A stretch of DNA of 64,000 nt from NCBI RefSeq assembly GCF_004010195.1, contig NC_057718.1:85822283-85886282 (forward strand). The letters are read 5' to 3'. The translations under genes were made by a program, and so were the position numbers. The notes under the pieces were generated by a model that was given only the letters and a program-made list of their open reading frames with translations, made no database searches and was not told the DNA's origin. The stretch is from Chiloscyllium plagiosum (Eukaryota). Positions 8,264-62,595 of the stretch are shown one piece after another (position 1 is the stretch's first letter; every line of letters begins with the position of its first letter).

Positions 8264-11032
8264 ACTGTTGGGACGGTCTCCACCTGAACCGATCAGGTAC
8301 CAATGTTCTAGCGAAGAGGATAAATAGGGTGGTCAGTAGGACTTTAAACTTCTGAGTTGGGAGGAGGGGGGAGGGGGGGAGGAAGGGAAAGCGACAGGGA
8401 GTATGGAGTTAAATGGAAAGATAAGCAACAGGATAGTATATGTGCAGGTAGATTTAAACTCGAGGCAGACTGGTAATGCAGCAAAAAGGATGGATAACTT
8501 AGGACATCTTATGGCTTCCAATATCTCTAATGATAAGAAAGTTAGCATTAAGGCACTTTACCTGAATGCTCGTAGCATTCGTAACAAAGCAGATGAACTA
8601 ATGGCACAGATCATGAATGATTATGATGTGGTAGGCATCACAGAGACGTGGTTACAGGGGGGTGCGTCGGATGATGTGGAGTCTGTGTGGGTGGAATTGA
8701 GGAACCACAAAAGGCAAAAAAAAAACCATAACGGGGGTTACGTACAGACCTCCTAACAGTGGTCAGGACCAGAGGCGCAACATGTACCGGGAAATAGAGA
8801 AGGCATGTCAGAAAGGCAAGGTCATGGTGATCATGGGAGACTTCAATATGCAGGTGGACTGGGTAAATAATGCTGCCAGTGGATCCAAAGAAAGGGAATT
8901 CTTGGAATGCTTACAGGATGGCTTTTTGGAACAGCTTGTCATGGAGCCCACAAGGGAGCAGGATATTCTGGACCTAGTGCTAAGCAATGAACCAGACTTT
9001 ATAAAAAATCTTAAAGTAAGGGAACATTTAGGAAGCAGCGATCATAATATAGTTCAGTCTGCAGTTTGAAAGAGAGAAGGCAAAATCGGATGTAATGGTG
9101 TTACAGTTAAATAACGGTAATTATGAGGGCATGAGAGAGGAACTGACGAAAATAGACTGGAGGCAGAGCCTGGCAGGGAAGACAGTAGAGCAAAAATGGT
9201 AGGAGTTTGTGGGTTATAATGGAGGACACTGTACAGAGGCTCATCCCCAAGAAAAGAAAGATTATGCGGGGAGGGATTAGACATCCATGGCTGACAAAGG
9301 AAGTCAGGAAATCTATCAAAGAAAAAGAGAGATCCTATAAAGTGGCCAAGAGCACTGGGAAATCAGAAGATTAGAAAGGCTACAAAAACAAACAGAGGAT
9401 AACAAAAGAGAAATAAGGAAGGAGAGGATCAAATATGAAGGTAGGCTAGCCAGTAATATTAGAAATGATAGTAAAAGTTTCTTTCAATACATAAGAAACA
9501 AACGACAGGCAAAAGTAAAACAATGGGCCACTTCAAACTGATGCTGGAAGCATAGTGATGGGAGATAAGGAAATAGCAGGAGAACTTAATAAGTACTGTG
9601 CATCAGTCTTCACAGTGGAAGACATTAGCAATATCCCAACAATTAAAGGCAGTCAGGGGGCTGAGTTGAGTATGGTTGCCATTACAAAAGAGATAGTGCT
9701 AGAAAAGCTAAAAAGGTCTTAAAATTGACAAATCTCCTGACCCCGGTGGGACACATCCTAGAGTTCTGAGGGAGGTGACTGAGGAAATAGCAGAGGCATT
9801 GGTTGACATCTTTCAAAAGTCACTGGAGTCAGGGAAAGTCCCGGATGATTGGAAGATTGCTGTTGCAACTCCCTTGTTCAAGAAAGGATCAAGACAAAAG
9901 ATGGAAAATTATAGGCCAATTAGCCTAACCTCGGTTGTTGGTAAAATTCTAGAATCCATCATTAAGGATGAGGTTTCTAAATTCTTGGAAGAACAGAATC
10001 GGATTAGAACAAGTCGACATGGATTTAGTAAGGGGAGGTCGTGCCTGACAAACCTGTTGGAATTCTATGAAGAGGTGACAAGTAGGTTAGACCGGGGAAA
10101 CCCAGTGGATGTGGTCTAACTAGACTATCAAAAGGCCTTTGATAAGGTGCCACACGGGAGGCTGCTGAGCAAGGTGAGGGCCCATGGTGTTCGAGGTGAG
10201 CTAGTGGTATGGATTAAGGATTGGCTGTCTGACAGAAGGCAGAAAGTTGGGATAAAAGGTTCTTTTTTGGAATGGCAGCCGGTACAAGCAGTATCCCGCA
10301 GGGTTCAGTGTTGGGGCCACAGCTGTTCACGTTATATATTAATGATCGGGATGAAGGGACTGGGGGCATTCTAGTGAAGTTTGCCGATGATACAAAGTTA
10401 GGTGGACAGGCAGGTAGTACTGAGGAAGTGGGGAGGCTGCAGAAGGATCTAGACAGTTTGGGAGAGTGGTCCAGGAAATGGCTGATGGAATTCAATTTGA
10501 GCAAATGTGAGGTCTTGCACTTTGGAAAAAAGNNNNNNNNNNNNNNNNNNNNNNNNNNNNNNNNNNNNNNNNNNNNNNNNNNNNNNNNNNNNNNNNNNNN
10601 NNNNNNNNNNNNNNNNNNNNNNNNNNNNNNNNNNNNNNNNNNNNNNNNNNNNNNNNNNNNNNNNNNNNNNNNNNNNNNNNNNNNNNNNNNNNNNNNNNNN
10701 NNNNNNNNNNTTGTTTCCGTTAGGCGAGGAGACTAGAACCCGTGGACACAGCCTTAGAATTAGAGGGGGTAAATTCAGAACAAAAATGCAGAGACATTTC
10801 TTCAGCCAGAGTGGTGGGCCTGTGGAATTCATTGCCACAGAGTGCAGTGGAGGCTGGGATGCTAAATGTCTTCAAGGCAGAGATTGATAAATTCTTGATG
10901 TTACAAGGAAATTAAGGGCTACGGGGAGAATGCGGGTAAGTGGAGTAGAAATGCCCATCAACCATGATTGAATGGCGGAGTGGACTCGATGGGCCGAATG
11001 GCCTTACTTCCACTCCTATGTCTTATGGACTT
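8264..11032 (+). mobile_element. Long CR1 LINE: end of ORF1 (SGNH esterase) and disrupted ORF2 (APE endonuclease + RT), with a gap
   Basis: WDGLHLNRSGTNVLAKRIN (ORF1 esterase end). EN motifs LYLNARSIRNK, GITETWL, MGDFN, LDLVL, GSSDH. RT motifs NYRPISLTS, PQGSVLGPQLF, KFADDTK. 3'UTR gggccgaatggccttacttcc. Confidence 0.92.
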
Positions 11033-21259: not shown

Positions 21260-22858
21260 TTGTGGTTCTGTTCGCCGAGCTGGGAATTTGTATTACAGAC
21301 GTTTCGTCCCCGGTCTAGTTGACATCCTCAGTGCTTGGGAGCCTCCTGTGTAGCTCTTCTGTGATGTTTCCTCCGGCATTTATAGTGATTTGTACCTGCC
21401 GCTTCCGGTTGTCAGTTCCGCAGTGGCCGGTATATTGGGTCCAGGTCGATGTGCTTATTGATTGAATCTGTAGATGAGTGCCACGCCTCTAGGAATTCCC
21501 TGGCTGTTCTCTGTTTGTCTTGTCCTATAATAGTAGTGTTGTCCCAGTTGAACTCATGTTGCTTGTCACCTGCGTGTGTGGCTAGCTGGTCATGTCGTTT
21601 CGTGGCTAGTTGGTGTTCATGGATGCGGACCATTAGCTGTCTTCCTGTTTGTCCTATGTAGTGTTTTGTGCAGTCCTTGCATGGGATTTTGTACACTACA
21701 TTGGTTTTGCTCATGCTGGGTATCGGGTCCTTCGTCCTGGTGAGTTGTTGTCTGAGGGTGGCTGTTGGTCTGTGTGCTGTTATAAGTCCTCGTGGTTGCA
21801 GTAGTCTGGCTGTCAGTTCAGAAATGTTTTTGATGTATGGTAGTGTGGCTAGTCCTTTGGGTTGTGGCATATCCTCATTCCGTTGTCTTTCCCTTAGGCA
21901 TCTGTTGATGAAATTGCGGGAGTATCCATTTTTGGCAAATATATTGTATAGGTGTTCTTCTTCCTCTTTTTGCAGTTCTGGTGTACTGCAGTGTGTTGTG
22001 GCCCTTTTAAACAGTGTCTTGATGCAACTTCTTTTGTGTGTGTTGGGATGGTTGCTTTCGTAGTTCAGGACTTGGTCTGTGTGTGTGGCTTTCCTGTATA
22101 CCTTAGTGGTGAATTCTCCGTTTGGTGTTCTCTGTACCATCACGTCTAGGAATGGGAGTTGGTTGTCCTTTTNNNNNNNNNNNNNNNNNNNNNNNNNNNN
22201 NNNNNNNNNNNNNNNNNNNNNNNNNNNNNNNNNNNNNNNNNNNNNNNNNNNNNNNNNNNNNNNNNNNNNNNNNNNNNNNNNNNNNNNNNNNNNNNNNNNN
22301 NNNNNNNNNNNNNNNNNNNNNNNNNNNNNNNNNNNNNNNNNNNNNNNNNNNNNNNNNNNNNNNNNNNNNNNNNNNNNNNNNNNNNNNNNNNNNNNNNNNN
22401 NNNNNNNNNNNNNNNNNNNNNNNNNNNNNNNNNNNNNNNNNNNNNNNNNNNNNNNNNNNNNNNNNNNNNNNNNNNNNNNNNNNNNNNNNNNNNNNNNNNN
22501 NNNNNNNNNNNNNNNNNNNNNNNNNNNNNNNNNNNNNNNNNNNNNNNNNNNNNNNNNNNNNNNNNNNNNNNNNNNNNNNNNNNNNNNNNNNNNNNNNNNN
22601 NNNNNNNNNNNNNNNNNNNNNNNNNNNNNNNNNNNNNNNNNNNNNNNNNNNNNNNNNNNNNNNNNNNNNNNCAGAAGTGGCAGGTATAAACCACTACAAA
22701 TGCCGGAGGAAACATCACAGAAGCGCTACACAGGAGGCTCCCAAGCACTGAGGATGTCACCTAGACAGGGGACGAAACGTCTGCAACACAAATTCCCAGC
22801 TCGGCGAACAGAACCACAGCAATGAGTACCCGAGCTACAAATCTTCTCCCAAACTTTG
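21260..22858. mobile_element. Penelope-like element with inverted pseudo-LTRs; left arm encodes RT C-terminus + GIY-YIG endonuclease on the - strand
   Basis: ORF 21412-22143(-): VYRKATHTDQVLNYESNHP...VVYKIPCKDCTKHYIGQTGRQL.VRIHEH...REFLEAWHS. Inverted pLTR 22672-22858 with a ~35-nt tail. TSD agattcaattaatg (21246-21259 / 22859-22872). Confidence 0.92.
22745..22784 (+). ncRNA. Minimal hammerhead ribozyme in the Penelope pLTR (mirror copy on - strand at 21295-21334)
   Basis: gca-CTGAGGA-t-GTC a CCT agac AGG g GAC-GAAAC-GTC-tgc. Confidence 0.75.
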
Positions 22859-24540: not shown

Positions 24541-25475
24541 CGCGTGTATGTGGCAGCATTTGTGTGCACAGCAAGATCCCACAATGCATCTAAATAACAG
24601 CCAACCTGACACTTCCTGACTGTTGAGAAGAAAATAGAATAATTGACTAGAAACCTTCGTTCTGGTTTCCTTTTGACAGTTACTGTCCAATTTGCTGAGG
24701 AATGCTAGTGTTTTCTGAGCCTGAGAAAGTTTGCTGACCGTGATGGCTCATCCTTCTGAACCCATTCTGCCTCAGTCTGGTCTCGCCCAAACTCTTTGGC
24801 CTTTATGATTTTGCTTTTGATCAAAACAATGGGACTGAAAAAAGTCTTCCTCTGCAACAAGACCATTTCTAATCATTTACATCTCCTTTTCCTCTGTACA
24901 ATAGTCTTTCTGTCCCCCCCCCAATCATTTACCTTCTCTGTTTTGGAGGAAATACTCCTTTAACTTGTCATTGATGTCACCTCTGGCCTTTCAGTGCCCG
25001 TAGTCTCAGTCTAAGACAAACCAGGACGAGACTTATACAGTCAGTAGTAGGGCTTTGGGTAATGTTGTTGAACAGAGGTGCATTGTTCTTTAAAAATTGT
25101 ATCACAGGTTGACAGGTTGGTGAAGAAGGCGTTTAGCATATTTGCCTTCATTGACCAGAGTATTGAGTATTGAGTATAGGAGTTGGGATGTCATGTTGCA
25201 TTTGTACAGGATATTGATGAGGCCTCATTTGGAGTACTGTATACAGTGTCCAGAGGTGTAGAGAGGAAAGGATTGCAAAGGTGATTCTGGATAGGAGCGA
25301 GAGTAACAGGGCGGTTATTATGGGGGCCTTAACTTACCAAATATTGACTGGGAATACTACAGTTCAAGTACTTGAGACGGGTCAGTTTTTGTCCAATGTG
25401 TGCAGTAGGATTTCCTGACACAGTATGTAGACAGGCCAACAAGAGGCAAAGTCACATTGGATTTGGTACTGGGAA

Positions 25476-26742
25476 CTGATCAGGTGTACCCGAGAACTCT
25501 GTAGAAAGCTAGAGAAGTGATTGCTGGGCCTCTTGCTGAGATATTTGTATCATCGATAGTCACAGGTGAGGTGCCAGAAGACTGGAGGTTGGCAAACGTG
25601 GTGCCACTGTTTAAGAAGGGTGGTAAAGTCAAGCCAGAGAACTATAGACCGGTGAGCCTGACCTCGGTGGTGGGCAAGTTGTTGGAGGGAATCCTGAGGG
25701 ACAGGATGTACATATACTTGGAAAGGCAAGGACTGATTTGGGATAGTCAACATGGCTTTGTGCGTGGGAAATCATGTCTCACAAACTTGATTGAGTTTTT
25801 TGAAGAAGTAACAAAGAAGATTGATGAGGGCAGAGCAATAGATGTGATCTATATGGACTTCAGTAAGGTGTTCGACAAGGTTCCCCATGGGACACCGATT
25901 AGCAAGGTTAGATCTCATGGAATACAGATGGAGTTTAATTTAGATAAATGTGAGGTGCTGCATTTTGTGAAAGCAAATCTTAGCAGGACTTATACACTTA
26001 ATGGTAAGGTCCTAGGGAGTGTTGCTGAACAAAGAGACCTTGGAGTGCAGGTTCATAACTCCTTGAAAGTGGAGTCGCAGGATAGTGAAGAAGGCGTTTG
26101 GTATGCTTTCCTTTATTGGTCAGAGTATTGAGTACAGGAGTTGGGAGGTCATGTTGCAGGCTGTGCAGGACATTGGTTAGGCCACTTTTGGAATATTGCA
26201 TGCAATTCTGGTCTCCTTCCTATTGGAAAGATGTTGTGAAACTTGAAAGGGTTCAGAAAAGATTTACAAGGATGTTGCCAGAGCTGGAGGATCTGAGCTA
26301 TAGAGAGAGGCTGTACAGGCTGGGGCTGTTTTCCCTGGAGTGTTGGAGGCTGAGGGGTGACCTTATAGAGGTTTACAAAATTATGAGGGGCATGGATAGG
26401 ATAAATAGACAAAGTCTTTTCCCTAGGGTCAGGAAGTCCAGAACCAGAGGGCATAGGTTAAGGGTGAGAGTGGAAAGATATAAAAGAGACCTAAGGGGCA
26501 ACTTTTTCACGCAGAGGGTAGTACATGTATGGAATGAGCTGCTAGATGATGTGGTGGAGGCTGGTAAAATTGCAACATTTAAGAGGCATTTGGATGGGTA
26601 TATGAATAGGAAGGGTTTGGAGGGATATGGGCTGGGTGCTGGCAGGTGGGACTGGATTGGGTTGGGATATCTGGTTGGCATGGACGGGTTGGTCCGAAGG
26701 GTCTGTTTCCATGCTGTACTTCTCTATGATTCTATGACTCTA
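25476..26742 (+). mobile_element. CR1 LINE, 5'-truncated, internal deletion at 25927; unedited reference for the 60468 copy
   Basis: VVPLFKKGG, NYRPVSLTSVVGK, YMDFSKVFDKVPH, LEYCMQFWSP; tail ctatgattctatgactcta. Confidence 0.92.
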
Positions 26743-27878
26743 ATTAGTATTAGATTTGGAGGTAGGTGAGCACTTTGGTGATAGTGACCATAATATGGTT
26801 ATGTTTACTTTAACAATGGAAAGGGATAGGTATATATCGCAGGGCAAGAGTTATTGCTGGGGAAACGCAATTATGATGCGATTAGGCAAGATTTAGGATG
26901 CATAGAATGGAGAAGGAAACTGCAGGGAGTGGGCACAATTGAAATGTGGAGTTTATTCAAGGAATAGCTACTGCATTTCCTTGATAAGTATATACCTGTC
27001 AGGCAGGGAGGAAGTGGTCGAGTGAGAGAGCCGTGGTTTACTAATAAAATTGAATTTCTTCTCAAGAGGAAGAAGGAAGCTTATGTTAGGATGGGACATG
27101 AAGGCTCCTTTAGGGTGCTTGAGAGTTACAAGCTAGTCAGAAAAGATCTAAAGAGAGAACTAAGAAGAGCCAGGAGGGGACATGAGAAGTTGTTGGCAGA
27201 TATAATCAAGCAAAACCCTAAGGCTTTCCATAGGTTTATCAGGAATAAAAGATTGACTAGAGTAAGATTTGGGCCAATCAAGGACAGTAGTGGGAAGTTA
27301 AGCATGGACTCCGAGGAGATAGGAGAAGCGCAAAATGAATATTTTTTGTCAGTATTCACACTGGAGAAAAGACAATATTGTTGAGGAGAATACTGAGATA
27401 CAGGCTACTAGACTAGGCGAGATTGAGGTTCACAAGGGAGAGGTGTTAGCAATTCTGGAAAGTATGAAAATAGGTAAGTCCCCTGGGCCGGATGGGATTT
27501 GTCCTAGGATTCTCTGGGAAGCCAGGGAGGAGATTACAGAGCCTTTAGCTTTGATATTTATGTTATCATTGTCTACAGAAATAGTGTCATATGACTGAAG
27601 GATAGCAAATGTTGTCCCCTTGTTCAAGAAGGGGAGTAGGGACAGTCCTGGTAATTATAGACCAGTGAGCCTTACTTTTGTTGTGGGTAAAGTGTTGGAA
27701 AAGCTTGTAAGAGATAGGATTTATAATCATCCAGAGAGGAATATGTTGATTAGGGATAGTCAACACGGTTTGTGGAGGGTAAGTCATGCCTCACAAACCT
27801 TATTGAGTTCTTTGCGAAGGCGATCAAACGGGTGGATGAAGGCAAAGCGGTTGATGTGTATGTGGATTTCAGTAAGGT

Positions 27879-47554: not shown

Positions 47555-49735
47555 ATTCATTGATATTAGGAATTGGGATGTCTTGTTGCCGCTGTACAAG
47601 ATATTGGTGAGGCCACATTTGGAGGATGGTGTGTAGTTCTGGTTGGCCTACTATAGAAAGGATATTATTAAACTAAAAAGAGTGCAGAAAAGATTTACAA
47701 GGATGCTGCCTGGACTGAATTGGGTTATAAGGAGAGGCTGAATAGGCTGGGACTTTTTTCCCCTCCTTTTTTCTCCTAGGAGTGTAGGAGACTGAGGGAT
47801 GATCTTATGGAGGTCTATAAAATCATGCGAGGCTTAGATAAGGTAACAGCTTCTTCTTATGGTGGGGGAGTGTAAAACTAGAGGGCTTAGGTTTAAGGTG
47901 AGAGGGGAGAGATACAAAAGGGTCCAACTTTTAGTGGGTGAGTGGCTGGAAGGAGGTAGTGGTGGAAGCGAGTACAATTTTGTCATTTAAGAAACATGCT
48001 GTTGCTGTGGTTCTGTTCGCCGAGCTGGAAGTTTTGTTGCAAACGTTTCGTCCCCTGTCTAGGTGACATCCTCAGTGCTTGGGAGCCTCCTGTGAAGCGC
48101 TTCTGTGGTGTTTCCTCCGGCATTTATAGTGGCCTGCCCCTGCCGCTTCCGGTTGTCAGTTTCAGCTATCCGCTGTAGTGGNNNNNNNNNNNNNNNNNNN
48201 NNNNNNNNNNNNNNNNNNNNNNNNNNNNNNNNNNNNNNNNNNNNNNNNNNNNNNNNNNNNNNNNNNNNNNNNNNNNNNNNNNNNNNNNNNNNNNNNNNNN
48301 NNNNNNNNNNNNNNNNNNNNNNNNNNNNNNNNNNNNNNNNNNNNNNNNNNNNNNNNNNNNNNNNNNNNNNNNNNNNNNNNNNNNNNNNNNNNNNNNNNNN
48401 NNNNNNNNNNNNNNNNNNNNNNNNNNNNNNNNNNNNNNNNNNNNNNNNNNNNNNNNNNNNNNNNNNNNNNNNNNNNNNNNNNNNNNNNNNNNNNNNNNNN
48501 NNNNNNNNNNNNNNNNNNNNNNNNNNNNNNNNNNNNNNNNNNNNNNNNNNNNNNNNNNNNNNNNNNNNNNNNNNNNNNNNNNNNNNNNNNNNNNNNNNNN
48601 NNNNNNNNNNNNNNNNNNNNNNNNNNNNNNNNNNNNNNNNNNNNNNNNNNNNNNNNNNNNNNNNNNNNNNNNNNNNNNNNNNNNNNNNNNNNNNNNNNNN
48701 NNNNNNNNNNNNNNNNNNNNNNNNNNNNNNNNNNNNNNNNNNNNNNNNNNNNNNNNNNNNNNNNNNNNNNNNNNNNNNNNNNNNNNNNNNNNNNNNNNNN
48801 NNNNNNNNNNNNNNNNNNNNNNNNNNNNNNNNNNNNNNNNNNNNNNNNNNNNNNNNNNNNNNNNNNNNNNNNNNNNNNNNNNNNNNNNNNNNNNNNNNNN
48901 NNNNNNNNNNNNNNNNNNNNNNNNNNNNNNNNNNNNNNNNNNNNNNNNNNNNNNNNNNNNNNNNNNNNNNNNATGACAGCCAGACTACTGCGACCACTAG
49001 GACTTATAACAGCACACAAACCAACAGCAACTCTCAGACAACAACTCACCAAAACGAAGGACCCGATACCCAGCATGAGCAAAACTAATATAGTGTACAA
49101 AATCCCATGCAAGGACTGCACAAAACACTATATAGGACAAACAGGAAAACAGCTAACAATCCGCATCCACGAACATCAACTAGCCACGAAACGACATGAC
49201 CAGCTATCCTTAGTAGCCACACACGCAGACGACAAGCAACATGAATTTGACTGGGGACAACACTACCATTATAGGGCAAGCGAAACAAAGAACAGCCAGG
49301 GAATTCCTAGAAGCATGGCACTCATCCACAAACTCCATCAACAAACACATCGACCTGGACCCAATATACCGGCCATTACAGCGGACAGCTGAAACTGACA
49401 ACCGGAAGCGGCAGGGACAGGCCACTATAAATGCCGGAGGAAACACCACAGAAGCGCTTCACAGGAGGCTCCCAAGCACTGAGGATGTCACCTAAACAGG
49501 GGACGAAACGTTTGCAACAAAAACTTCCAGCTCGGCGAACAGAACCACAGCAACGAGCACCCGAGCTACAAATCTTCTCACAAACTTTGAAATTAAGAAA
49601 CATTTGGACAGGTACGTGGATGGGGTAAGTGGTGGAGGGATATGGTCTAAATGCAAGCAAATGGGATTAGATTAATTGTGAAAACTGGGACTAGTTTGGC
49701 TGAAGGGCCTGTATCCATGCTGTAAACGTCTATGG
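47555..49735 (+). mobile_element. CR1 3' fragment split by the Penelope insertion
   Basis: ...tgtcatttaagaaacat | ttaagaaacatttggacaggtac... reads as a continuous CR1 3' end. Confidence 0.75.
47998..49592. mobile_element. Penelope-like element with inverted pseudo-LTRs; right arm encodes GIY-YIG on the + strand
   Basis: IVYKIPCKDCTKHYIGQTGKQLTIRIHEH (frameshift about 49255) REFLEAWHS. Hammerhead motifs at 49476-49515 (+) and 48039-48078 (-). TSD ttaagaaacat (47987-47997 / 49593-49603). Confidence 0.92.
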
Positions 49736-52189: not shown

Positions 52190-53840
52190 ACAAGACCGTA
52201 AGATATAGGAGCAGAATTAAGTCATTCAGCCCGTTGAATCAGCTCCATTATTTGATCGTGACTGATATGTTTCTCAACCCCATTTTGCTTCCTTCATCCT
52301 GTTACCCTGGTCCTCGGTCTAAAATACACGCAATGACCTGGCCTTCACAGACTTCCGGGGCAATGAGTTCCTCAGATTCACCACCTCCTGGCTGAAGAAA
52401 TTCCTCTTCATCTCAATTCTAAAGATTCGTCCCTTCAGTCTGAGGCTGGGCCCTTGCGTCCTATTTTGTCTTACTGGTGGAAATGTCTTCTCCATTTTAC
52501 CCAGGGTCCTCAGTATTCTGTAAGTTTCAATGAGATTCCCCCTCATCCTTCTTAACTCCGTTGAGTACTGACCAAATTCTTCAAGCACTTCATCCCTGGG
52601 ATCATTCTTATAAACCTCCTCTGCATCCCCCTCCAAAGGTAGCACATCCTTTCCTAGATACAAGGCCCAAAACTGCTCACAATGCTCCAAATGCAGTCTA
52701 ACAAGAGCCTTAAACAGCCTCAGTAGTAGATCCCTGCTATTGTATTCTAGCCCTTTTAAAATGAACAGTAACATTGCATTTGCCTTCCTGACTGCCAGCT
52801 TAACCTGCATGCTAACCTGGTGAATCTTGAACCAAGATTCCCAACTCCCTTAGATCCTCTGATTTCTGAAGCCTTTCTCTATTTAGAAAACAGTCTATGC
52901 CTCTAATATTCCTATCAACGTGCATAGCCTCACACTTTCATACATTGTATTCCACCTGCCACTTCTTTGACCACTCTCCTAGCTGGTCACTGTCCTTCTG
53001 CAGCCTTCCCACTTCCTCGTCACTATCCTGTTATAGAGTCATAGAGATGTACAGCATGGAAACAGACTCTTGGGTCCAACTCGTTCATGCCAACCAGATA
53101 TCCTAAACTAATCTAGTCCCCTTTGCTAGCACTTGGCCCATATCCCTTTAAACCTGTCCCATTCACATAACCATCCAGATGCCTTTTAAATGTTATAATT
53201 GTCGCAGCCTCCACCATTTCCTCTGGCAGTTCATTCCATCCATGTACCACCCTCTACATGAAAAAGTTGCCCCTCGTGTCTCTTTTAAACTTTTTCCCTC
53301 TCATCCTAAACCTATGCCCTCTAGTTCTGGACTCCCCACCCTAGGGAAAAGACTTTGTTTATTTACCCTATCTATGCCTGTCATGATTTTATAAACCTCT
53401 AAAAGGTCACCCCTCAGTCTCCGACACTCAAGGGAAAACAGCCCCAGCCTGTTCAGCCTCTCCCTATAGCTCAAATCCTCCAACCCTGGCAACGTCCTTG
53501 TAAATCTTTGCATAACCCTTTCAAGTTTCACAACAATCTTCCGATAGAGGGGAGACCAGAATGACACACAATATTCCAAAAGTGTTCTTGCATTTATCTT
53601 TGTACCATTTGCAAACTTAGTAACAATGTTGTCAGTTCCTTCCTCCACATCATTAAGGTATAGTGTGGATAGTTGTGGTCCCAACACTGACCCCTACGGA
53701 ACCTCACTAGTCTCTGTCTGCCATCCTGAAAAAGACCTCTTTCTCTGCAATCTCTGCCCTCTGCCAGTCAGCCAATCCTCTATCCATGCCAAGATCTTGC
53801 CCCTAACACCTTAGGCTCTCATCTTATTTAGCAGTCTCCT
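52190..53840 (-). mobile_element. CR1 LINE fragment with a nested younger CR1 (about 53033-53585)
   Basis: AVRKANAMLLFILKGLEY; LGPQLSTLYLND...TKFANGTK; inner copy LLEYCVSFWSP...LPGLEDLSYRERL. Confidence 0.8.
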
Positions 53841-57830: not shown

Positions 57831-58617
57831 TTAGTCCAGCATATGTGAAATGGCTGTGTTGGTATTTAACTCAGAGTTATTCTCCTGCCTTTTCCCCGTA
57901 CCCCTGCCCATTGTTTCCAATTAAATAACATCCAAAGCTCTCTAGAAAGCCTCAGTTGAACCTGCCTCCACTACAATACTTGACAGTGCATTCCAGACCC
58001 AACTACTTGCTATGTGAAAAAGTTCCTTTATCCCCCCACTACGCATTCGCTTGTTTTGCAAAACTGTGCTCTCGGGTTTTTGATCTTTTGATAAGTGGGA
58101 ACAGTTTCTCTGGATTCCCACTGTCCGGACCTCACATGATTTTGTAAACATCTATCAAAATTTGAATTGAATTGAATTGAGTTGAATTGAATTAGCTTTA
58201 TTGTCACATGTACTGAAATGAGTATAGGGCAACGTTTGCAATTCATCAGTTACTATACCATCTTAGGTGCAAAGGTAGCTGGTTATAGATTGTTCGAGAC
58301 AAGCTCTTAGGAAAAAAATAAGAGAAAAATAAAGAAATAAAATTAAAAAAAAATATCTTAGCCTTCTCTGCTCCAAAGGAAAATAGTCACTATTGTTCCA
58401 ATCTTTCCTCATGACTGAAGTGCCTCATCCTTGGGACCATTCTGTTACACCTCTGCCACCCTCTCTCAAATGCATTTGAGTCACAGAGATGTACAGCGCG
58501 GAAACAGACCCTTTGGTCCAATTCGCCCATGCTGACCAGATATCCCAACCAAATCTAGTCCCATTTGCCAGCACTTGGCCCATATCCCTCTAAACCCTTC
58601 CTATTCATATACCCTAG

Positions 58618-60351: not shown

Positions 60352-62595
60352 TGTATCATTTGGCAGAATGCCTCATTATCAGAACTTTGCAGCAAGCACC
60401 AAGACATTGTTTGGTTGAGAAGGGTGAGAAGGGCATCATCTGTGAGATCCTTCATGTATGTCCAGACGGGACCTGATCGGGTGTACGCGAGAACTCTGTG
60501 GGAGGCTAGAGAGGTGATTGCCGGGCCTTTTGCTGGGATATTTGTATCATTGATAGTCACAAGTGAGGTGCCGGAGGACTGGAGGTTGGCAAATGTGGTG
60601 CCACTGTTTAGGAGGGGCGGTAGGGATGGGCTGGGGAACTGTAGACTGGTGGGTCTGGCCTTGGTGGTGGAAGGGTTGTTGGAGGGAATCCTGAGGGACA
60701 GGATGTACATGTATTTGGAAGGACTGATTGGGGAGAGTCAGCATGGCTTTGTGCGTGGGAGGTCATGTCTCACAGACTTGATTGGGTTATTTGAGGAAGT
60801 GGCAAAGAAGATTGATGGGGGCGGAGCGGTGGGTCTGGTCTATATGGACTTCGGTAGGGCGTTCGGTGGGGTTCCCCATGGGAGACTGATTAGCAAGGTT
60901 AGATCTCATGGAATAAAAGGAGAACTAGCCATTTGGATACAGAGCTGGCTCAAGGGTGGAAGGCAGAGGATGGTACTAGAGGGTTGTTTTTCGGACTGGA
61001 GGCTGTGGCCAGGGGAGTGCTGCAGGCATCGGTGCTGGGTCCTCTACTTTTCGTCATTTAAATAAATGATTTTGATGCAAGCATAAGAGGTACAGTTAGT
61101 GGCTTTGCAGATGACACCAGGGTTGGAGGTGTGGTGAACAGCGGGGAGGGTTACCTCAGATTACAGCAGGATCTGGACCAGATGGGCCAATGGACTGAGG
61201 GGTGGAAGATGGAGTTTAATTTGGATAGGTGCGAGGTGCTGCATTTTGGGAAAGCAAATCTTAGCAGAACTTATACACTTAATGGTCAGGTCCTGTGGGG
61301 TGTTGCTGGGTAGGGGGACCTTGGAGTGCAGGTTCAAAGCTCCTTGAAAGTGGAGTTGCAGGTAGATAGGGTAGTGAAAAAGGTGTTTGGTATGCTTTCC
61401 TTTATTGGTCAGAGTACTGAGTACGGGAGTTGGGAGGTCGTGTTGCTGGTGTATGGGACATTGGTTAGGCCACTGTTGGAGTGTTGCATGCAGTTCTGGT
61501 CTCCTTCCTGTCGGAGGGATGTTGTGAGGCTTGAAGGGATTCAGAGGAGATTTGCAGGGTTGTTGCCAGGGTTGGAGGATTTGAGCTATGGGGAGAGGCT
61601 GAACAGGCTGGGGCTGTTTTCCCTGGAGCATTGAGGGCTGAGGGGTGACCTTGTGGAGGTTTGCAGGATTGTGGAGGGCATGGATAGGATGGATGGACAG
61701 GGTCTTTTCCCTGGGGTCAGGGAGTCCAGAACGAGAGGGCATAGGTTTAGAGTGAGAGGGGAAAGATATAAAAGAGACTTACAGGGCAACTTTTTCATAC
61801 AGAGAGTGGTATGTGTATGGAATGAGCTGCCAGAGGATGCGGTGGAGGCTGGTACAATTACAACATTTGAGAAGCATTTGGATGGGTATATGAATAGGAA
61901 GGGTTTGGAGGGATATGGGTCGGGTGCTGGGAGGTGGGACTAGATTGGGTTGGGATATCTGGTCGGCATGGACGAGTTAGACCGAAGGGTCTGTTTCCAT
62001 GCTGTACATCTCTATGACTCTATGACTCTCTGTGCCACATTGTCCCACATCTCCTTCTGGAATGTGCCTTTGCAAAGGAAGTCTGGAGAAAGATGCAGTG
62101 GTTTTTGTAGAGGTTCATCCTGAGCAGCTCCATGACGCAGGACTCTGCTCAACAGTCTGTTCTCCGGGACGCACACTGAGACAAACATTGATTGTGTCTG
62201 CAGGATCATCAATTCAGTGAAAGATGGTTTTCAGTCTGCCCAAAACGTGTTGGTCTTCCAGAGCAAGGCGTTGACTTCGACTGAGTATAGCAGACTGACA
62301 CATTCCAATGTCCAGGACTGCATGCTGAAGGATGCATTAAAGCTTGGAGCATCTGCCACCAAGGTACAGTGAGGCAAGACCACCAATTAAGGTCTTTCTG
62401 CCAAAGTATAATGGGGAGATGTCCAGTTATTGGACCCTCCCAGTGCCTCAAATGTATGTAAATAGTGTCTTATACAAGTTAGAGAAGTCTTGGGCATGTT
62501 TGTTCTCCATATAAAAGACTGCAAACAGAATGAACTGTTCTTGTGACTGTATGTATATAAAGACCTTTTATGAATAAAGCATGTTATTGAAATTT
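60352..62595 (+). mobile_element. Tx1-like (L1 clade) LINE 3' fragment split by the hyper-edited CR1
   Basis: Left: IIWQNASLSELCSKHQDIVWL...VRSFMY. Right: HLLLECAFAKEVWRKMQWF...GTHTETNIDCVCRIINSVKD (zf-RVT region). End tttatgaataaag. Confidence 0.75.
60468..62028 (+). mobile_element. CR1 LINE, 5'-truncated, with dense sense-strand A-to-G hypermutation
   Basis: Colinear with 25476-26742, but FKKGG>FRRGG, NYRPVSLT>NCRLVGLA, DFSK.FDKVPH>DFGRAFGGVPH, EVYKIMRGMDRINRQS>EVCRIVEGMDRMDGQG; tail ctatgactctatgactc. Confidence 0.92.

Follow-up and report, generated by a model that had tools for sequence, protein, structure and literature searches.

A LINE copy in the genome of the shark Chiloscyllium plagiosum carries a bounded, one-strand A-to-G footprint resembling ADAR hyper-editing

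The window analysed here is a 64,000-nucleotide stretch of the Chiloscyllium plagiosum genome (assembly GCF_004010195.1, contig NC_057718.1), and towards its end lies a 5'-truncated copy of an abundant LINE family inserted in an older dispersed repeat (Table 1; referred to here as the focal copy). The focal copy spans most of the reverse-transcriptase region, the C-terminal part of ORF2 and the 3' UTR, and ends in tandem ATGACTCT units without a poly-A tail. It is dead, with one frame change near 61020-61065 and stop codons at 61311-61313 and 61632-61634. The truncation is judged from the homologous sequence, absent here, that runs further upstream in about 20 of 29 other copies, and both borders of the insertion are placed by three paralogs of the host repeat which have no LINE and read CCAGAC directly followed by TCTCTG (it should be noted that these sites are paralogous and not orthologous, and that microhomology leaves a 3-base uncertainty at the 3' border). 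The hallmarks of a retrotransposed insertion are found together here, namely a clean insertion when compared with the paralogous empty site, a 5' truncation and an intact 3' end with the repeats of the family, and the comparison of these sequences indicates that the focal copy is a clean insertion into the host repeat.

Table 1. Features of the window discussed in the text (coordinates are those of the window).
Feature	Coordinates	Strand	Basis or A>G changes
Focal LINE copy, 5'-truncated, of an abundant family	60468..62029	+	Upstream homology in other copies; paralogous empty sites
Putatively hyper-edited domain	60479..61701	+	A>G at 97/338 ancestral A (29%; 17-48% across 100-base bins)
Unedited 3' tail: ORF2 end (stop 61941-61943 here), 3' UTR and terminal ATGACTCT repeats	61702..62029	+	A>G at 1/77 ancestral A
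Upstream flank, part of the older dispersed repeat hit by the LINE	60356..60467	.	A>G at 2/34 A, no excess
Downstream flank, same host repeat continued	62027..62480	.	A>G at 2/53 A over 62029-62270, no excess
Unedited sister copy (comparison copy of the preliminary description)	25471..26741	+	95-97% identity to the family majority

A search with the host repeat gave 1050 candidates, with 39 non-self matches at 82-86%. One read contig (run X15) links 60465 to 62060 and resembles an empty site, and was set aside as it is too short (a side of 27 bases) and too deep (depth 355) to be separated from a host-repeat paralog. We also note a contig of single-copy depth, from a run labelled as another species, which crosses 60468 with at least 36 bases on each side, though this is a hint only.

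The identity of the family can be given at the level of the group. A 505-aa open reading frame in another copy (L002) matches RVT_1 with an E-value of 1e-29, and the 3' ends of the compared family copies read (ATGACTCT)n and lack poly-A. A 3' repeat with an 8-base unit is a typical trait of CR1. From these sequence features we would place the element as a CR1-group-like LINE, and only to that level; the preliminary description of the window had called it CR1, which stands only in this broader sense. In a survey of elasmobranchs, CR1-group elements account for 22-34% of the genome, and a poly-A tail is described there as unique to Zenon (PMC13343379).

We took the ancestral state at each site to be the column majority of 29 other copies from the genome (L002-L030). 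Over 1547 sites the focal copy departs from this majority by 98 A>G, 24 G>A, 4 T>C and 20 C>T changes and 22 transversions, whereas in the 29 others A>G changes number 2-12 per copy and 217 altogether (mean 7.5), and the per-copy ranges of the remaining classes are 14-30 for G>A, 1-14 for T>C, 4-18 for C>T and 12-32 for transversions. A>G is therefore raised thirteen-fold in the focal copy (Poisson probability of at least 98 at a mean of 7.5 = 3e-72), and this excess runs along the sense strand of the LINE, which is the strand of the RNA intermediate, with T>C, its mirror, and G>A, its reverse, both at background as would be expected of a one-strand editing footprint. The polarity proposed earlier, with A as the ancestral state, is upheld by the same majority. 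In base composition the edited domain has moved from the A 28% and G 31% seen in the 29 other copies to A 21% and G 38%. G>A, T>C and transversions fall inside the ranges of the other copies, and C>T, counted with them as background, is just above its range.

The preliminary description had compared the focal copy with its sister, which is truncated at almost the same 5' base and has a 293-base internal deletion equivalent to 60916-61208. Its counts for the two remaining blocks were reproduced exactly, with 42 A>G against 2 G>A over 60473-60915 and 44 against 7 over 61209-61702 (with 3 and 4 T>C and 11 and 6 C>T changes in these segments), and the sequence examples it quoted are present. A full pairwise alignment of the two copies gives 97 A>G, 19 G>A, 19 T>C and 22 C>T, and when the two blocks of the sister are themselves compared with the majority they show 1 and 2 A>G and 6 and 9 G>A. 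The segment 60916-61208, which lay beyond the earlier comparison since it is deleted in the sister, is also affected in the focal copy.

The limits of the excess are sharp, as it sets in no more than 11 bases from the 5' junction and breaks off abruptly at 61701 inside the element (97/338 against 1/77 ancestral A changed in the domain and the tail, Fisher p = 3.7e-9). Within the domain the changed A's are clumped (120 runs compared with 139 +/- 7.5 in permutations, P = 0.008), giving the dense clustering in a bounded region that is looked for in an editing footprint, and the other substitution classes stay at family background (non-A>G divergence is 54/1227 or 4.4% in the domain and 16/320 or 5.0% in the unedited tail, with 3.2-5.5% in the 29 other copies). 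As the excess is bounded by the 5' junction and both the tail and the flanks are clean, the mutations arrived together with the inserted DNA and do not reflect the locus itself.

A later origin, with the changes arising in the DNA once the copy was in place, would have to invoke a local mutator, biased gene conversion or transcription-coupled asymmetry. On the side of such an origin, transcription is known to favour A>G weakly on the non-transcribed strand. However, the flanks together have 4/87 A's changed (p = 2e-7 against the domain), the excess runs from the insertion junction to a point within the element, T>C shows no increase, and the inverted LINE pieces that lie close to the copy today form pairs only with its unedited 3' part (61471-62026). 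We consider post-insertion mutation to be extremely improbable, and biased gene conversion, like a subfamily origin, was rejected on the substitution counts. A regional GC bias, which had been named as a possible explanation from the start, is likewise not supported when 4 T>C are set against 98 A>G and the flanks are clean.

The G alleles are private to the focal copy. At 85 of the 98 A>G sites the G is found in none or one of the 29 copies and no copy shares more than seven, so that the G-rich subfamily raised as a counter-explanation in the preliminary description finds no other members. Genome queries made only of the edited segments returned nothing above 84% and 87% identity; these can exclude a subfamily, but a copy edited independently would have few sites in common with the query and would be missed. 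No further hyper-edited copy was seen among the 53 copies and fragments examined, and the focal copy is the one that had been chosen beforehand. No copy stands out as the source, as all are about equally distant (84-87% identity).

Support for the assembly itself comes from short-read contigs compared at 90% likeness, where paralogs swamp most of the stretch and four pieces of single-copy depth are usable (most of the other letters seen in this comparison belong to other LINE copies and are uninformative on the focal locus). A contig from run X1 covers 60790-60898, which holds 14 A>G sites, with no other letters at a depth of 24, and a contig from run X2 covers 60359-60521, across the 5' junction, with no other letters at a depth of 13. 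X1 may be the assembly's own sample, and X2 has a different sample and study code. None of the runs listed as containing the stretch is recorded as RNA. The concern that the G's are an assembly artefact is answered in these covered parts, which match the assembly exactly, and the match is limited to them. An assembly or sequencing artefact, or else a divergent G-rich subfamily or chimera, would be compatible with the focal copy being a singleton and with confirmation from independent contigs over part of the domain only, but we regard it as highly improbable given these exact matches and the expectation that a divergent subfamily would differ in all classes, when the non-A>G divergence of the domain lies within that of the family.

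The bases next to the changed A's provide a further line of evidence. A's with a 5' G were changed at 18/120 sites (15%) compared with 79/216 (37%) otherwise (odds ratio 0.31, p = 3e-5), and A's with a 3' G were changed at 46/126 (37%) compared with 51/210 (24%) otherwise (p = 0.018). The 3' G effect is modest, with a four-way test giving p = 0.05, and among offsets -3 to +3 only position -1 is strongly non-random (p = 1.6e-9). The background A>G changes of the 29 other copies have no such bias, with 1.6-2.2% changed in every 5' context. The 5' preference of ADAR is for U and A about equally, and in the focal copy the changed fraction by 5' base falls in the order A 57%, T 29%, C 21% and G 15%, with A well above T, which is a point against an ADAR reading. 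Depletion of upstream G and enrichment of downstream G is the ADAR motif described by Porath et al. 2014 (PMC4365171) and also given by Zaranek et al. 2010 (PMC2873906), and the bias which the preliminary description had proposed as a check is present in the focal copy in the same form.

Two other explanations place the changes before or during insertion. In the first, error-prone LINE reverse transcription would have set C opposite template A over the distal 1.2 kb, for example under a skewed dNTP pool or after a template switch and with no RNA editing, and this would likewise affect the same strand, stay within the insert and leave the 3' end, which is copied first, clean. We consider it very unlikely, as an error of 29% at one base with all other classes at background is far from ordinary polymerase error, the 29 other copies from the same enzyme family have only 2-12 A>G each, and the depletion of 5' G with enrichment of 3' G fits ADAR (PMC4365171). 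In the second, an adenosine deaminase other than a dsRNA-specific ADAR would have had single-stranded LINE RNA, or the ribonucleoprotein particle, as its substrate, and a 3' end protected by protein could explain the spared tail equally well; the duplex partner needed by ADAR is only an expectation of the preferred reading, and at least six genome loci have exon matches to A_deamin (PF02137) above cut-off, candidates for ADAR1 and ADAR2 as well as for ADAD and ADAT1, and these loci count on the side of the ADAR reading too. This is also very unlikely in our view, since dense promiscuous editing over more than 1 kb is known ADAR behaviour on long duplexes, and the neighbour bias is the one described for ADARs (PMC4365171, PMC2873906). 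In the inverted-repeat region of an avian retrovirus, nearly 50% of A's are reported as changed (PMC12925331).

The one-strand A>G excess, private alleles, clean flanks and ADAR-like motif support the earlier interpretation, that an ADAR-hyper-edited LINE RNA was retrotransposed, and we think it probable that a LINE RNA was hyper-edited by ADAR in a long duplex and then reverse-transcribed into the germline. A sense LINE transcript would have paired over at least 1.2 kb with antisense RNA, supplied most likely by an inverted copy on that transcript itself or by a second transcript in antisense, leaving the last ~330 bases of the LINE RNA unpaired, and we infer that an ADAR-type dsRNA adenosine deaminase turned about 29% of the adenosines in this duplex to inosine. 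The LINE reverse transcriptase would then have begun at the unedited 3' end by target-primed reverse transcription, reading inosine as G, and have stopped or been truncated at what is now position 60468, with the product fixed as germline DNA within the older repeat.

Some points tell against this reading, in which the duplex partner is a postulate. No internal inverted repeat of 14 bases or more was found in the focal element, and the inverted pieces at the present locus are irrelevant to editing before insertion. A partner sparing exactly the last 330 bases needs a special explanation because LINE copies normally share their 3' ends, and would have to be an inverted copy that was 3'-deleted or interrupted, or else have an internal antisense start. 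Further points against the reading are that the focal copy is the only one of its kind among the 53 copies and fragments, that the read contigs match it over parts of the domain only, and that no editing of human L1 RNA was found in the assay of Orecchini et al. 2017 (PMC5224506).

APOBEC 'DNA editing' of endogenous retroelements was reportedly described by Carmi and colleagues in 2011. It is also the subject of Knisbacher and Levanon 2015 (PMC4866542) and Lindic 2013 (PMC3880073), and as presented there it resembles the focal copy in that a host deaminase hypermutates a retroelement before integration, a fossil copy remains in the germline, and detection is by clusters in one direction and on one strand, polarised with a consensus. 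APOBEC, however, converts C to U on the minus-strand cDNA and so gives sense G>A in GG or GA context, and this reading was rejected as G>A in the focal copy is at background (24, with 14-30 in the other copies). Hyper-edited RNA clusters described from transcriptomes (PMC4365171, PMC2873906) have the same density, clustering and neighbour motif as the focal copy, but they are RNA-DNA differences which leave the genome untouched.

The closest precedents involve DNA copied from edited RNA. A>G hyperediting is described in integrated RAV-1, ALV, HTLV-2, STLV-3 and BLV (PMC8586724, PMC12925331, PMC8025556), with the proviral cases credited to Felder 1994 for RAV-1, Hajjar and Linial 1995 for ALV and Ko 2012 for HTLV-2 and STLV-3 (cited via PMC8586724 and PMC12925331). 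In these, as proposed for the focal copy, clusters of sense A>G enter integrated DNA through reverse transcription of edited RNA, with up to about half of the A's in duplex regions changed. The viruses are exogenous, with cytoplasmic reverse transcription, somatic proviruses and mostly short clusters (about 70 bases in BLV, PMC8025556), whereas the focal copy is a non-LTR LINE that would have used target-primed reverse transcription and is inherited.

A 2024 bioRxiv preprint reports ADAR-type clusters in 3/235 de novo L1-mediated processed-pseudogene insertions in human cells (PMC11702581), and here too a LINE reverse transcriptase wrote duplex-edited RNA into chromosomal DNA, leaving clustered one-strand A>G (reported there as T>C) in a rare few insertions and limited to the paired part of the RNA. 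Those insertions are somatic, in engineered cells, and derive from cellular mRNAs with the clusters inside inverted Alu pairs of 3' UTRs, in contrast to the focal copy which concerns the LINE's own RNA, a 1.2 kb domain and a shark, and is found in a germline assembly and in contigs of other runs. The suggestion in the preliminary description that such a footprint may be undescribed was therefore too strong, given the ADAR-type A>G clusters published for integrated retroviral DNA and de novo L1-mediated insertions, and the focal copy is less novel than claimed, being a clean natural example of a process known from retroviruses and cultured human cells. Among the papers covered, none describes a LINE copy with ADAR-type hypermutation that has become fixed in the genome of a germline; two that may be relevant, Gilbert et al. 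2005 and Carmi et al. 2011, lie outside this scope.

A function of its own is not likely for the focal copy, which is a single dead copy. What it would illustrate is that an RNA-editing event can become heritable vertebrate germline DNA through the LINE's own copying cycle, and the spared tail gives a hint that an RNA can be copied only when its 3' recognition region is left unedited. An equivalent ADAR-editing role for Alu was described as 'not yet determined' but 'logical to assume' in the review by Goodier 2016 (PMC4982230). With one class raised, sharp borders and a motif, this unusually clean case could serve as a template for genome-wide screens mirroring those made for APOBEC, which discard A>G clusters by design (the pipeline in PMC4866542 selects G>A and filters against A>G). 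It is tempting but rather doubtful to go further and propose a regular process, in which sense-antisense LINE duplexes in shark germ cells are hyper-edited by ADAR and some still retrotranspose, though only if about 330 bases at the 3' end, needed for recognition by the reverse transcriptase, are left both unpaired and unedited. If this were true, LINE-rich genomes would preserve fossils, open to dating, of ADAR activity in the germline and of the LINE RNAs that had been double-stranded, and ADAR would restrict non-LTR elements by mutating them, much as APOBEC does with LTR elements.

Pairwise alignment of the A>G-rich LINE copy in the window (the focal copy) with its sister, a second copy of the same LINE at 25471-26741 (+), gave 42 A>G and 2 G>A changes over 60473-60915 and 44 A>G and 7 G>A over 61209-61702, exactly reproducing the counts of the preliminary description, which had proposed a germline-fixed copy hyper-edited from A to G by ADAR. 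Polarity was assigned from the majority state of each column after 29 further genome copies had been aligned to the focal copy, which avoids reliance on one comparison copy. The focal copy then carries 98 A>G changes (2–12 in the 29 other copies, mean 7.5), with 24 G>A (14–30), 4 T>C (1–14), 20 C>T (4–18) and 22 transversions (12–32). Because of these counts, and a Poisson tail probability of 3e-72 for 98 A>G given the mean, we conclude that the increase, about thirteen-fold, is confined to exactly one substitution class and to one strand. The changed A sites are clumped along the copy.

Features in the window and in genome copies (L numbers), and informative contigs from short-read runs X1 and X2
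Feature	Position	Strand	Depth	Other letters	Remarks
Focal LINE copy	60468-62029	+			5'-truncated; very abundant LINE
Open frame, 206 aa	58866-59486	+			Resembles C-terminal part of another, unrelated LINE/reverse-transcriptase family
X1 contig	60790-60898		24	0	Contains 14 A>G sites
X1 contig	60359-60553		19	2	
X2 contig	60359-60521		13	0	Spans 5' junction
X2 contig	60492-60581			3	
Diverged fragment	L002:3638-3948				G>A 27 vs C>T 5
Diverged fragment	L004:3064-3518				G>A 40 vs C>T 16
Diverged fragment	L022:3101-3579				G>A 38 vs C>T 18
Diverged fragment	window 53030-53584				G>A 28 vs C>T 9
N run	10533-10710				178 bases
N run	22173-22671				499 bases
N run	48182-48972				791 bases

A search of the 3.56-Gb genome with the focal copy returned 32,130 first-look candidates, and all non-self full-length matches amongst the best 40 scored show 83-87% identity. 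Most other copies have upstream sequence in common which the focal copy lacks, and the 3' ends of all compared copies consist of ATGACTCT-type tandem units without poly-A. The longest open frame amongst the copies (505 aa, in genome copy L002) matches RVT_1 at E 1e-29; the frame of the focal copy is disrupted by one frame change and two stops, and it is a single dead copy. We call the element CR1-group-like, a putative placement based on RVT_1, the 3' repeats and the missing poly-A tail; its earlier naming as CR1 proper goes beyond this evidence. The neighbourhood of the focal copy is composed wholly of repeats. The unedited sister is nested in the endonuclease-coding region of another LINE (flanks 25301-25477 and 26742-26900), with the upstream flank translating as ...NLPNIDW...DRPTRGKVTLDLVLGT and the downstream flank, in another frame and by eye, continuing ...GEHFGDSDHNMVMFTLTMERDR. 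The 5' truncation points of the focal copy, the sister (25471-25476) and genome copy L022 (near 3066) lie no more than about 4 bases apart, at GGACCTGATC, and each copy has a different upstream flank; this may mark a truncation or end-joining hot spot, or reflect chance and the way the copies were picked.

The A>G sites span 60479-61701, including a part deleted in the sister and so beyond the initial comparison. Within this domain G is found at 97/338 ancestral A, compared with 1/77 in the last 330 bases of the copy (p = 3.7e-9). The focal copy is of ordinary age for its family, because its divergence with A>G left aside (4.4% for the domain, 5.0% for the tail) matches the total divergence of the other 29 copies (3.2-5.5%). 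The flanks are part of an older dispersed repeat (1050 candidates in a genome search), three paralogs of which are uninterrupted at the site, with CCAGAC directly before TCTCTG; the LINE separates the window's two motifs (60462-60467 and 62027-62032), and the edited domain and unedited tail therefore arrived together in one insertion. Compared with the majority of the three paralogs, the flanks show A>G at 2/34 A upstream and 2/53 downstream, far below the rate in the domain (p = 2e-7), which makes it very unlikely that a locus-wide process after insertion produced the changes. Directly 3' of the insertion (62033-62045) the window's host repeat lacks some 40 bases present in all three paralogs (L032-L034), which may be a small target-site deletion caused by the insertion or an unrelated deletion. 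One X15 contig, from a run under a third organism label, passes from 60465 straight on to 62060 with the LINE absent (side 27, depth 355); it is probably a host-repeat paralog rather than the orthologous empty site.

The bases surrounding the changed sites match the published ADAR motif, in which upstream G is depleted and downstream G enriched (PMC4365171, PMC2873906). With a 5' G, 18/120 A are changed compared with 79/216 without (odds ratio 0.31, p = 3e-5), the fraction changed by 5' base being 57% for A, 29% for T, 21% for C and 15% for G; with a 3' G, 46/126 are changed compared with 51/210 without (p = 0.018). Between offsets -3 and +3, strong non-randomness is seen at -1 only (p = 1.6e-9; -2 p = 0.018; +2 and +3 p > 0.9), and ordinary A>G changes, when pooled from the other 29 copies, are free of 5' bias (1.6-2.2% per context). 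Error-prone reverse transcription with no RNA editing would predict the same strand and the same confinement, but would account neither for this motif nor for 29% error at one base when all other changes are normal, and we regard it as highly improbable.

For A>G to be written into the sense strand of DNA, the RNA template must already carry the changes when first-strand synthesis begins. A deaminated cDNA strand is rejected as the source: cytosine deamination should give sense-strand G>A and adenine deamination T>C, neither of which is raised. We therefore favour hyper-editing of a LINE RNA that was afterwards copied. We think it quite probable that this was the work of ADAR on a long duplex, followed by reverse transcription into the germline, and the mechanism first suggested is well supported by the one-strand A>G, motif, clean flanks and private alleles. 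A_deamin exons occur at six or more loci of the genome, which are candidates for ADAR1 and ADAR2. Judged from sequence alone, there is a small chance that another adenosine deaminase was responsible.

Under ADAR editing, the LINE RNA would have been hyper-edited first and then copied into DNA by target-primed reverse transcription. The duplex partner would be another RNA, or another copy within the same transcript, because the focal element lacks internal inverted repeats of at least 14 bases. The abrupt end of the changes at 61701 points to a place where the duplex physically ended rather than to chance escape, since at 29% per site the probability of the 77 A staying unedited is 0.71^76 ~ 1e-11. 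A partner sparing the 3' end is unexpected, as LINE copies normally share their 3' ends; plausibly, RNAs edited in the 3' recognition region would be unusable by the reverse transcriptase, and only those with free tails would be seen. Inverted LINE pieces near the locus (53030-53584 and 58478-58614, both -) are rejected as the source of the pattern, as their pairing is limited to 61471-62026 (+), for the most part unedited sequence. These fragments of the same family lie 3-8 kb upstream of the focal copy and have 77-88% complementarity with its 3' part; if co-transcribed, they could form dsRNA today.

The G alleles are nearly private to the focal copy, with G in 0 or 1 of the 29 copies at 85/98 A>G sites and no copy having more than 7 in common with it. 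Edited-segment queries found best matches outside the locus of 84% (60570-60880; best 40 of 5,021 candidates scored) and 87% identity (61420-61705; best 40 of 6,388), the level expected of unedited copies. We therefore reject a G-rich subfamily; there may be a rare second copy with the same G alleles, since only the best 40 candidates were scored in each case. The A>G pattern is seen in 0/13 other LINE fragments within the window, 0/29 full-length genome copies and 0/10 further fragments in their flanks, and the hyper-edited frequency is 1/53 copies and fragments, that one having been chosen beforehand. In several diverged fragments G>A clearly exceeds C>T against the family majority, in part from a G-rich sense strand and subfamily differences; an APOBEC-like share would be a further possible source.

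Read contigs at 90% likeness are noisy, as contigs of thousands of paralogs align, and four pieces of single-copy depth are informative. Those of X1 at 60790-60898 and X2 at 60359-60521 contradict an assembly artefact over the parts of the domain they cover, where the reads have the assembly letters, including the 14 A>G sites of the X1 piece; X1 is possibly the assembly's own sample, and for X2 both the sample code and the study code differ. Eight runs with the same organism label (four samples, two studies) contain 35-49% of the words sampled from the stretch, and six with a second label contain 30-31%. Because a contig from X11, one of the latter label, crosses 60468 at depth 23 with at least 36 bases on each side, the insertion may be shared with a related species, as this sequence suggests. 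The base preceding the first aligned LINE base (60468) is G in the window and A, the family state, in the single X11 contig, a possible lineage-specific difference.

Our full-text literature search found no account in main texts of a LINE copy with ADAR-type hypermutation that had become fixed in a germline. The suggestion that such a footprint may be undescribed nevertheless goes too far, as parts of the mechanism are already in print. Published work reports A>G hyperediting in integrated avian and delta-retroviruses (PMC8586724, PMC12925331, PMC8025556), and clustered changes in 3/235 de novo L1-mediated pseudogene insertions in human cells, limited to inverted Alu pairs and 'consistent with ADAR editing' (2024 preprint PMC11702581). 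Goodier's 2016 review considers a role for ADAR editing in Alu evolution undetermined yet logical to assume (PMC4982230), and Orecchini et al. found human L1 RNA unedited in their assay (PMC5224506). APOBEC screens of vertebrate genomes selected G>A and filtered against A>G (PMC4866542), and such copies would go unreported there. The focal copy is possibly the first vertebrate germline case reported that involves RNA of the LINE itself, and provides a neat natural case of a process known in its parts.
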